This document shows, one piece after another, positions 32,319 through 32,761 of a DNA stretch of 49,614 bases. Numbering within the stretch: position 1 is the first letter of the stretch; every line of letters starts with the position of its first letter. Both the position numbers and the translations under genes were made by a program. Under the pieces are notes generated by a model. The model was not told the origin of the DNA. It did no database searches and saw nothing but the letters and a program-made list of their open reading frames with translations. Source of the stretch: Anaerolineales bacterium (GTDB taxonomy: Bacteria > Chloroflexota > Anaerolineae > Anaerolineales > Villigracilaceae); contig JBKBPX010000001.1 of the NCBI GenBank assembly GCA_046292855.1, forward strand, positions 1 to 49,614. Reading direction: 5' to 3'.

Positions 32319-32485
32319 AAACTCCTCCGATAGGATAAGATGGTGGGAATGCAAAAACCCCTGCCGCAGCAGGGGGGAGGAGAGCCAGTCCAAACGATGG
32401 CGTTCTCCACCTCCTTTCCGCGAGAGTGTGGGAACACACATCAGGGCGGGCGACCTGGCTTGGGTGGGTCAAGAGTGGTGTAATA

Positions 32486-32533
32486 GTCTTATAGTCTTAT
32501 AGTCTTATAGTCTTATGGTCTTATGGTCAGATG
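32486..32533. repeat. Octamer tandem repeat (GTCTTAT[A/G]), 6 units
   Basis: gtcttata three times, gtcttatg twice, gtcagatg. Confidence 0.9.
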
Positions 32534-32547
32534 GTGTTTTTGTCGAA

Positions 32548-32651
32548 CTATTTGTCTATTTGACTATTTGACTATTTGACTATTTGTCTATTTGACTATT
32601 TGACTATTTGTCTATCTGTCTATTTGACTATCAGACCATTTGACTATCTGA
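32548..32651. repeat. Octamer tandem repeat (CTATTTG[A/T]), 13 units, inverted relative to 32486-32533
   Basis: ctatttgt/ctatttga/ctatctgt/ctatcaga units. The reverse complement (GTCAAATA) differs from GTCTTATA at two positions, and ctatcaga is the exact reverse-complement phase of GTCTGATA. Confidence 0.9.
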
Positions 32652-32761
32652 CCCTCGACTTCCCTCACAGTTGCGGGACAGCGCCGGACTTGCACCGGCT
32701 TCGCCTTTCAGCCCTCCCATCCGGGGGGTGGGGCACCCTGATGCGAGATGAATTGTGGGAA

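Follow-up and report, generated by a model that had tools for sequence, protein, structure and literature searches.

This study examined the 5' leader of a vitamin B12 transport operon in an Anaerolineales bacterium of the Chloroflexota. The DNA analyzed, hereafter termed the window, is one complete contig of 49,614 bp (GenBank assembly GCA_046292855.1, contig JBKBPX010000001.1). On its minus strand, genes for a B12-type ATP-binding cassette (ABC) importer, a second substrate-binding protein, and a cobalamin adenosyltransferase lie behind a leader that contains a cobalamin riboswitch, and two inverted arrays of octamer repeats are situated within the aptamer of this riboswitch, at the tip of its stem P6 (Table 1). 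By sequence and gene context, the leader is a genuine cobalamin riboswitch; it precedes a standard B12 salvage operon and is a predicted terminator-type OFF switch. Related loci are referred to by L numbers.

Table 1. Features of the leader and of the operon behind it (window positions)
Feature	Position	Strand	Basis or remark
Probable -10 block TTGTGGTAAAAT (TGn-extended TAAAAT)	32762-32773	-	Conservation
Cobalamin riboswitch aptamer, full length	32428-32755	-	RF00174
P1, 5' strand CAUCAGGG	32736-32743	-	Exact complement of 32446-32439
P2 stem-loop module GCCCCA...GGGAGGGC	32711-32734	-	Rfam alignment; nearly invariant among orthologs
P5 hairpin GCCGG-UGCAAGU-CCGGC (loop, L5)	32683-32699	-	Rfam alignment
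P6-extension base helix, 5' strand GGGAAGUCGAGGGUCAG	32648-32664	-	Pairs with 32475-32462 in minimum-free-energy folds
5' repeat arm, 13.2 units of AUAGUCAA-type octamers	32547-32652	-	Tandem Repeats Finder
Non-repeat spacer UCGACAAAAACACCAUCU, apical loop region of the hairpin	32529-32546	-	Between both arrays
3' repeat arm, 5.8 units of AAGACUAU / AAGACCAU, inverted relative to the 5' arm	32483-32528	-	Tandem Repeats Finder
P6-extension base helix, 3' strand CUCUUGACCCACCC	32462-32475	-	Minimum-free-energy folds
B12 box AAGCCAGGUCGCCCGCC	32445-32461	-	Aligns to RF00174 consensus AGCCAGGAGACCuGCC
P1, 3' strand CCCUGAUG	32439-32446	-	Exact complement of 32743-32736
P13-like hairpin of the expression platform, GUUCCCAC...GUGGAGAAC	32402-32435	-	Predicted full-leader fold
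Intrinsic terminator CCCCUGC-UGCG-GCAGGGG + UUUUU	32353-32375	-	Terminator scan; conserved in orthologs
Shine-Dalgarno sequence GGAGGAG	32322-32328	-	Sequence; btuF start codon at 32318
btuF-like lipoprotein, substrate-binding protein of B12-type ABC importer	31056-32318	-	PF01497, E = 2.7e-30
btuC-like permease	29884-30930	-	PF01032 (FecCD), E = 9.1e-77
btuD-like ABC ATPase	28892-29881	-	PF00005, E = 2.1e-33
Octamer array (GACUAUCA / GACCAUCA) x 8.5	28825-28892	-	Fills btuD-btuF2 gap
Second Peripla_BP_2 (btuF-like) gene, btuF2	28004-28816	-	PF01497, E = 2.2e-17
Octamer array (GACUAUAA) x 7.8	27951-28012	-	btuF2-pduO gap; unit identical to P6 3' arm
PduO-type cob(I)alamin adenosyltransferase	27383-27946	-	PF01923, E = 1.4e-61

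The aptamer matches the cobalamin model over its full length

The Rfam cobalamin covariance model (RF00174) matched positions 32755-32428 of the minus strand over its full length (model positions 1-189 of 189) with 62.1 bits (E = 4.4e-13), approximately twice the gathering score of 31.5. In this alignment, 134 + 20 nt (~154 nt) were assigned as an insertion in the P6 apical region. A preliminary description of the DNA, made from the letters of the sequence, had proposed that two separated halves constitute one cobalamin aptamer and that the repeats between them leave the conserved core in place. Both proposals were borne out, because the model recognized the two halves as a single full-length aptamer with the repeats still present.

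The aptamer is closed by a P1 helix of eight perfect pairs, and its strands CAUCAGGG and CCCUGAUG are exactly complementary, as had been claimed. The predicted pair probability of P1 was 1.0 whether the insertion was present or deleted in silico, and a compensated G-C to A-U change occurs in P1 of the related leaders L001-L004. P1, P2, and P5 were all retained in the predicted fold of the full aptamer, in which the repeats form an extension of P6. When prefixes of the transcript were folded, the P5 hairpin was present in every prefix, and P2 rearranged transiently in prefixes of 160-200 nt. The P5 stem is invariant across relatives, and its loop L5 differs, reading GCAAG, GAGAG, GAAAG, or GCGAG. 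The B12 box AAGCCAGGUCGCCCGCC (class consensus AGYCMGGgagaCCkGCc), on the 3' side of the aptamer, is unchanged in orthologs. The segment ACACCACUCUUGACCCACCC, which had earlier been read as part of the B12 box, is actually the 3' strand of the P6-extension base helix.

Inverted octamer arrays fold into a predicted P6 hairpin

Both arms of the insertion were delimited by using Tandem Repeats Finder. The 5' arm has a period of 8 nt (84% matches, score 149) and a higher-order period of 32 nt (3.2 copies, 91%, score 167), and the 3' arm has a period of 8 nt with 97% matches (score 78). On the RNA strand, the AUAGUCAA and AAGACUAU units pair at six of eight nucleotides and leave tandem A-A mismatches; the repeat search and the predicted fold thus agree with the pairing pattern that the preliminary description had drawn. 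Two of its measurements required correction: the spacer between the arms is 18-20 nt rather than 14 nt, and the insertion, which had been given as 166 nt, amounts to approximately 182 nt extra relative to sister-clade leaders with a plain P6 (P6 region of 216 versus 34 nt).

The insertion folded alone into one long imperfect hairpin of -44.1 kcal/mol, compared with a mean of -25.3 +/- 3.8 kcal/mol for shuffled insertions (z = -4.95), and none of the 200 shuffled sequences folded as well. In the minimum-free-energy fold, the 3' arm pairs with the outermost units of the 5' arm. This fold, together with the plain P6 of orthologs at the same site, upholds the earlier suggestion of a long imperfect hairpin on a peripheral stem. 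Small open reading frames (ORFs) that overlap the P6 repeats on either strand are translated repeat sequence.

An assembly artefact was rejected as the source of the insertion. The arrays are imperfect and have higher-order structure, matched helix strands are present on both flanks, and homologous insertions occur in independent assemblies of relatives.

The A+T-rich array could also create promoter-like sites, such that some transcripts would start inside the aptamer and escape B12 control. We consider this highly improbable. Two weak sigma-70-like matches (TAGACA, 16 nt, AATAGT; 9/12) are present on the minus strand at 32622-32595 and 32590-32563, but their score is the lowest that the scan accepts, and the repeat unit itself gives rise to them. 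The region contains 4 such sites versus 1.4 expected by chance on a consensus that is that of sigma-70 and not Chloroflexota-specific, and a transcript of this type would still reach the terminator.

Sister-clade leaders lack the insertion and are otherwise conserved

A BtuF scan of species-representative genomes yielded 76 loci. The leader of the window recurs in six loci of the sister clade (L001-L004, L077, and L088), each of which comes from a metagenome assembly or contig of Anaerolineales type. BtuF identity to the window is 83-87% for this set; it is 84-87% for L001-L004 and 87% for L088 (protein P0002), and L077 matches L004. In all six leaders, P6 is a plain 20-nt hairpin of the form GGUCAG-loop-CUGACC (GGUCAGGCAUAGGCACUGACC in L001).

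These insertion-free orthologous leaders were used as a natural stand-in for deleting the repeats. The comparison of orthologous leaders that had been proposed in the preliminary description was thereby carried out, and the model recognized the leaders of L001-L004 at 67.7-70.8 bits. The aptamer of the window scores 6-9 bits below them, a cost that comprises the insertion plus a few substitutions.

We further compared the leader of the window with L001-L004 against the background of neighboring DNA. The identity was 93-94% in the 5' part of the aptamer and 90-93% in the 3' part together with the expression platform, whereas it was 55-59% at the third codon positions of btuF and ~30% in flanking non-coding DNA. 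The excess of leader identity (90-94%) over that of the third codon positions therefore indicates strong purifying selection on the switch across this divergence.

Close relatives carry shorter versions of the insertion

Closer relatives of the window were reached through the 90%-identity BtuF cluster. The other members of this cluster come from independent assemblies, where they lie on short contigs, and their P6 contains a homologous but shorter and more degenerate insertion. The P6 region, taken as the stretch between CUGU and AAGCCAG, is 216 nt in the window, 113 nt in L086 (89% identity to the window in btuF coding DNA), 166 nt in L079, L080, L082, and L084 (87.3-87.5%), and 167 nt in L081 (85%); it is 34 nt in L001 and in L088 (80%) and 31 nt in L004. 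In L079 and L082, the 5' arm comprises ~2.8 units with a period of 15-16 nt, and the 3' arm comprises ~4.9 units with a period of 8 nt (74% matches). Every insertion-bearing version folds as one stem-loop on a homologous base helix (GGGAAGUCAAG / CUUGACUUCC). L089 and L090 (btuF coding DNA 79% identical) have a non-repetitive extension of ~85 nt at the same P6 site. On the evidence of these leaders, the P6 tip is hypervariable in this group.

The homologous insertions in relatives indicate that the repeat insertion was inherited and is not unique to this contig, and the arrays of the window, being the largest and most homogeneous, point to a recent expansion. Exact-protein look-ups of BtuF and PduO and two metagenome scans did not reveal another assembly of this species in which the leader is complete; the metagenome scans yielded no other insertion of the window type and only one leader with a short P6, that of L077.

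Several relatives end close to the leader. L085 is the closest relative found (btuF coding DNA 93% identical) and has 51 nt of upstream sequence before its contig ends; these positions (1-51) depart from the window just upstream of the Shine-Dalgarno sequence, with GGTTAAAAACCTTTTT in place of the terminator arm GCAGGGGTTTTT. Six independent short-read contigs of the relatives (L079-L084 and L086) begin in or beside the L5 loop, at CCGGTGCGAG, TGCAAGTCC, or AAGTCC. The occurrence of GCGAG versus GCAAG in L5 at those contig ends suggests a strain polymorphism that breaks assemblies.

Transcript start and expression platform

A -10-like block, TTGTGGTAAAAT in the window and TGTAGTATAAT or TGTGGTAAAAT in orthologs, precedes P1 by ~20 nt. 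Across the window, L001-L004, L077, L088, and L089, nothing else in the upstream flank is conserved or can be aligned. For want of a good -35 element, the block was missed by the sigma-70 consensus scan. Transcription likely starts at ~32756, approximately 12 nt before P1, as judged from the position of this block. Because the block is conserved upstream of P1, the transcript would include the 5' half of the aptamer, which argues against the case, raised in the preliminary description, of a transcript that starts downstream of that half.

The P13-like hairpin of the expression platform is invariant in the window and L001-L004, and its loop region contains CUCUCGC. By sequence reading, L5 of L001-3 (GAGAG) is perfectly complementary to the CUCUC of this platform loop, and L5 of L079 (GCGAG) is perfectly complementary to its CUCGC. 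A kissing interaction between L5 and the platform loop is only partly supported. The downstream terminator with U5 that had been described earlier was recovered by the terminator scan (32375-32353), and 86 nt separate the end of the aptamer from the U-run.

Repeat arrays elsewhere in the operon and the contig

The units of the octamer array between btuD and btuF2 are of the family that also makes up the 3' arm of P6. The 49.6-kb contig has GACTAT-family arrays at four sites, all inside the btu operon and spread over 4.7 kb. In the sister clade, the btuD-btuF2 junction holds heptamer arrays (GGACCGU / AGACGGU or their complement), and in L081 it holds (GACUAUGA) x 7.1.

The contig has eight arrays with a period of 7-8 nt, all in intergenic or intercistronic gaps. 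Arrays of the TGGACGG heptamer or its complement fill four intergenic gaps (19046-19076, 25485-25535, 35167-35197, and 42794-42825), the last of which runs right up to the following start codon. In the sister clade (L001-L004 and L077), this heptamer family is found between btuD and btuF2. Longer tandem repeats are also present. A 42-nt unit (4.8 + 2.4 copies, ~90% identical) occupies 21239-21561 inside the ORF at 21121-22041, the product of which is presumably a protein with 14-residue repeats. Units of 31 nt (x 3.2) and 40 nt (x 1.9) occupy 44888-45107 and 45277-45376, ~170 nt upstream of the SRP RNA gene (RF00169, 63.3 bits).

The gene content of the operon also differs among orthologs. Orthologous operons have a gene for a 247-aa PF01902 protein (Diphthami_syn_2, PP-loop ATPase) between btuF2 and pduO (10195-10938 in L001); the window is without this gene and has the (GACTATAA) x 7.8 array at the same junction, 27951-28012.

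A second riboswitch, of the SAM-I type, was identified at 129-280 on the plus strand (RF00162, 85 bits). Its P3 loop contains a 51-nt insertion where the model expects 4 nt. This insertion is non-repetitive, and a repeat insertion is therefore not general to the riboswitches of this contig. Immediately before the promoter region of the SAM riboswitch, positions 30-64 hold a direct repeat of 17 nt (CTAGCCCGTCATAATTT x 2.1).

Repeat-built P6 extensions in other Chloroflexota lineages

We surveyed 77 loci with a regular expression for the conserved CCCGCAACNGT core plus a B12 box, a search less sensitive than the covariance model. The survey revealed 37 leaders with both elements; their P6 regions span 14-111 nt, and that of the window is the longest. 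In the Rfam-confirmed riboswitches of L010, L011, and L012, which represent more distantly related Chloroflexota, inverted pairs of heptamer arrays were found within P6. The arms are GAAUUGC versus AAUCCGN in L010, (GUAAUAA)n versus (UUAUUAC)n in L011 and L063, and related A+U-rich units in L012 and L014. These heptamer-built arms fold into long, nearly perfect helices, and compensated changes occur in 4 of the 36 predicted pairs of the group comprising L011, L063, L012, and L014. The differing units indicate that repeat-built P6 extensions arose at least three times.

In each case the arms in P6 are complementary, whereas the arrays between the genes of these operons run in one direction only, which suggests selection for pairing inside the aptamer. 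Long hexamer or heptamer arrays also occur outside riboswitches in other Chloroflexota loci: L013 carries an exact inverted pair, (AGATAG) x 10 and (TCTCTA) x 7.7, at 345-407 and 443-490, and L008 carries arrays at 3164-3316 and 5041-5169, with 17 ATACCGA units between the riboswitch and btuF.

These observations bear on the possibility that the rod itself is selected, with the repeat number tuning folding kinetics or ligand selectivity, or with the surplus units acting elsewhere. In one variant, the surplus AUAGUC units would pair with the intercistronic GACUAU arrays or bind a repeat-specific protein and thereby couple the state of the leader to the expression or processing of btuF2 and pduO. 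The apparent confinement of GACTAT-family arrays to the btu operon within the 49.6 kb analyzed agrees with this explanation. The predicted duplex energies of the 5' arm are -53.0 and -46.4 kcal/mol when the partners are the junction arrays, compared with -28.2 kcal/mol for its local 3' arm and about -9 to -12 kcal/mol for shuffled partners, and both the recurrence of repeat-built P6 helices in at least three lineages with different units and the differences in P6 length among close relatives are in its favor. However, the six sister-clade leaders have the same conserved platform and no extension, so the rod is not needed; the extension of L089 and L090 at the same site is not built of repeats; and short-repeat arrays fill many unrelated intergenic gaps, both in this contig and in the relatives, so a mutational explanation suffices. 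We therefore regard selection for the repeats as improbable. The more specific proposal is that the P6 rod is an evolvable module in which copy number sets folding or the preference for a cobalamin form, and in which the ~7 unpaired AUAGUC units pair with the GACUAU arrays upstream of the btuF2 and pduO starts. It appears more improbable again; if true, it would link B12 sensing at the 5' end to the translation or processing of distal cistrons.

Discussion

We consider it probable that the leader is a functional OFF switch with a tolerated, slippage-driven expansion of P6, and this is the most likely explanation of the locus. The binding of cobalamin would lead to intrinsic termination and turn off btuF-btuC-btuD-btuF2-pduO. 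The ancestral aptamer may have had only the P2 module and a short P6 hairpin, and in the lineage of this genome the P6 tip would have gained octamer repeats of the GACUAU / AUAGUC family. The tip is peripheral and lies outside the ligand pocket, and it is probably a permissive site. The inverted arrays would fold into a long rod of 6-bp segments separated by tandem A-A mismatches, on a short G+C-rich base helix. The arrays, being inverted and self-folding, would leave P1, the B12 box, and the four-way junction free to form, and because the insertion lies upstream of the B12 box, the 86-nt distance from the aptamer to the U-run is unchanged; the kinetic window for the decision should stay unaffected. 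The arrays may expand and contract by slippage, with recent growth here to 13 and 6 units. We infer ligand binding, termination control, the neutrality of the insertion, and its origin by slippage. One side stem, probably non-essential, has been enlarged about sevenfold by the repeats, and the variant is unusual but probably harmless.

Several observations weigh against this explanation. The arms are unequal (13 versus 6 units), so that ~7 units are left unpaired locally and the arms could align in many registers, and the base helix has two alternative registers with a pair probability of only ~0.3 each. The conserved GUAA of the core that adjoins P6, invariant across the nine leaders of alignment A2, reads GUGA in the window. 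L5 of the window (GCAAG) matches the platform loop at four of five positions, a weaker match than in relatives, and no clear antiterminator helix could be derived from the leader folds. Moreover, the conservation of the switch cannot be dated relative to the latest expansion, which could be too young for decay to have followed.

The unequal arms and ambiguous registers, the GUGA, and the weaker loop complementarity, together with the loss from the operon of the PF01902 gene that orthologs carry, would be expected if the expansion or the GUAA to GUGA change had disabled ligand sensing and left a relic, either a constitutive attenuator or a decaying read-through leader. We consider such a relic unlikely. 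Everything outside P6 is 90-94% identical to leaders from which neutral sites have diverged nearly to saturation, and the insertion persists in at least three diverged relatives with the core, B12 box, P1, and terminator intact. The GUGA is also found in L079 and L086, relatives of the window, and in L010, in which the rest of the aptamer is intact, and the Rfam score of the window is merely 6-9 bits under those of the insertion-free orthologs.

Cobalamin riboswitches are built around a four-way junction of P3-P6, with the ligand pocket in the core. Extensions of P6 are peripheral; they are large and structured in Cbl-I and small in Cbl-II and in the Bacillus subtilis yvrC type, and the known extensions are structured domains of unique sequence, which in Cbl-I fold back to buttress the adenosyl pocket (PMC7367189). 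The leader described here shares with the RF00174 class the P1 helix, the P2 stem-loop, the four-way-junction core, the B12 box, the terminator platform, and the association with B12 transport genes. It contains a P2 module, and the ancestral state of the clade, a P2 module plus the short P6 hairpin seen in L001-L004, resembles the layout of the "atypical" yvrC-type architecture (PMC7367189); P6 of the window is no longer small and forms a region of ~216 nt that consists almost wholly of two inverted octamer arrays. Unlike Cbl-I, the group has no conserved elaborate P7-P11 extension, with a 20-nt P6 hairpin in the sister clade and a lineage-specific repeat rod in the window, and P6 of the window is also unlike the short loop of Cbl-II. 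The insertion occupies the same site as the known variable P6 extensions (PMC7367189), the most variable peripheral site, at which RF00174 allows an insertion of variable length; the difference is that the extension here is a low-complexity repeat rod that measures 31-34, 113, 166, and 216 nt among close relatives.

Short tandem repeats between genes are familiar from other bacteria, and cyanobacteria carry heptamer STRR elements. Abundant intergenic heptamer repeats have been recorded for cyanobacteria and, as TAACTGA repeats, for Beggiatoaceae (PMC4679880), and Chloroflexus aurantiacus has (GATAGRA)n heptamer satellites (PMC6749651). The arrays described here resemble STRR-like intergenic repeats in their 7-8-nt units, their ~4-13 copies, their non-coding placement, their several families, and their fast unit turnover. 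They differ in the period of 8 nt, in the Anaerolineales-type Chloroflexota host, and in the placement of one inverted pair inside an aptamer. In the open-access text that was searched, no such placement of tandem arrays inside a riboswitch aptamer was found. A slippage-prone repeat in the leader is also a feature of simple-sequence-repeat phase variation in 5' untranslated regions (UTRs), as in Haemophilus influenzae (PMC12721329), and in both settings the copy number could alter RNA structure; however, a changed copy number in an apical hairpin extension would not be expected to switch expression on or off.

This type of switch, the class to which it belongs, and the variable nature of P6 are already known. 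Not described in the open-access literature that was searched are the tandem-array extension of P6, its rapid change in length among close relatives, and its recurrence in several Chloroflexota lineages. These results indicate that an aptamer can bear ~180 nt of slippage-prone repeat on a peripheral stem while it is conserved everywhere else. The relatives constitute a natural length series for P6 (31-34, 113, 166, and 216 nt) on an otherwise near-identical switch, which bears on how the length and stability of P6 affect folding, selectivity, and termination efficiency.

The finding involves no new mechanism, but it calls for care in annotation and assembly. Short-read assemblies break at such leaders, as seen in the related contigs, most of which stop within or close to the leader or the junction arrays, and searches for an aptamer of fixed length can overlook these leaders or cut them short. 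If the arrays are no more than tolerated, they show which part of this riboswitch class is structurally dispensable.

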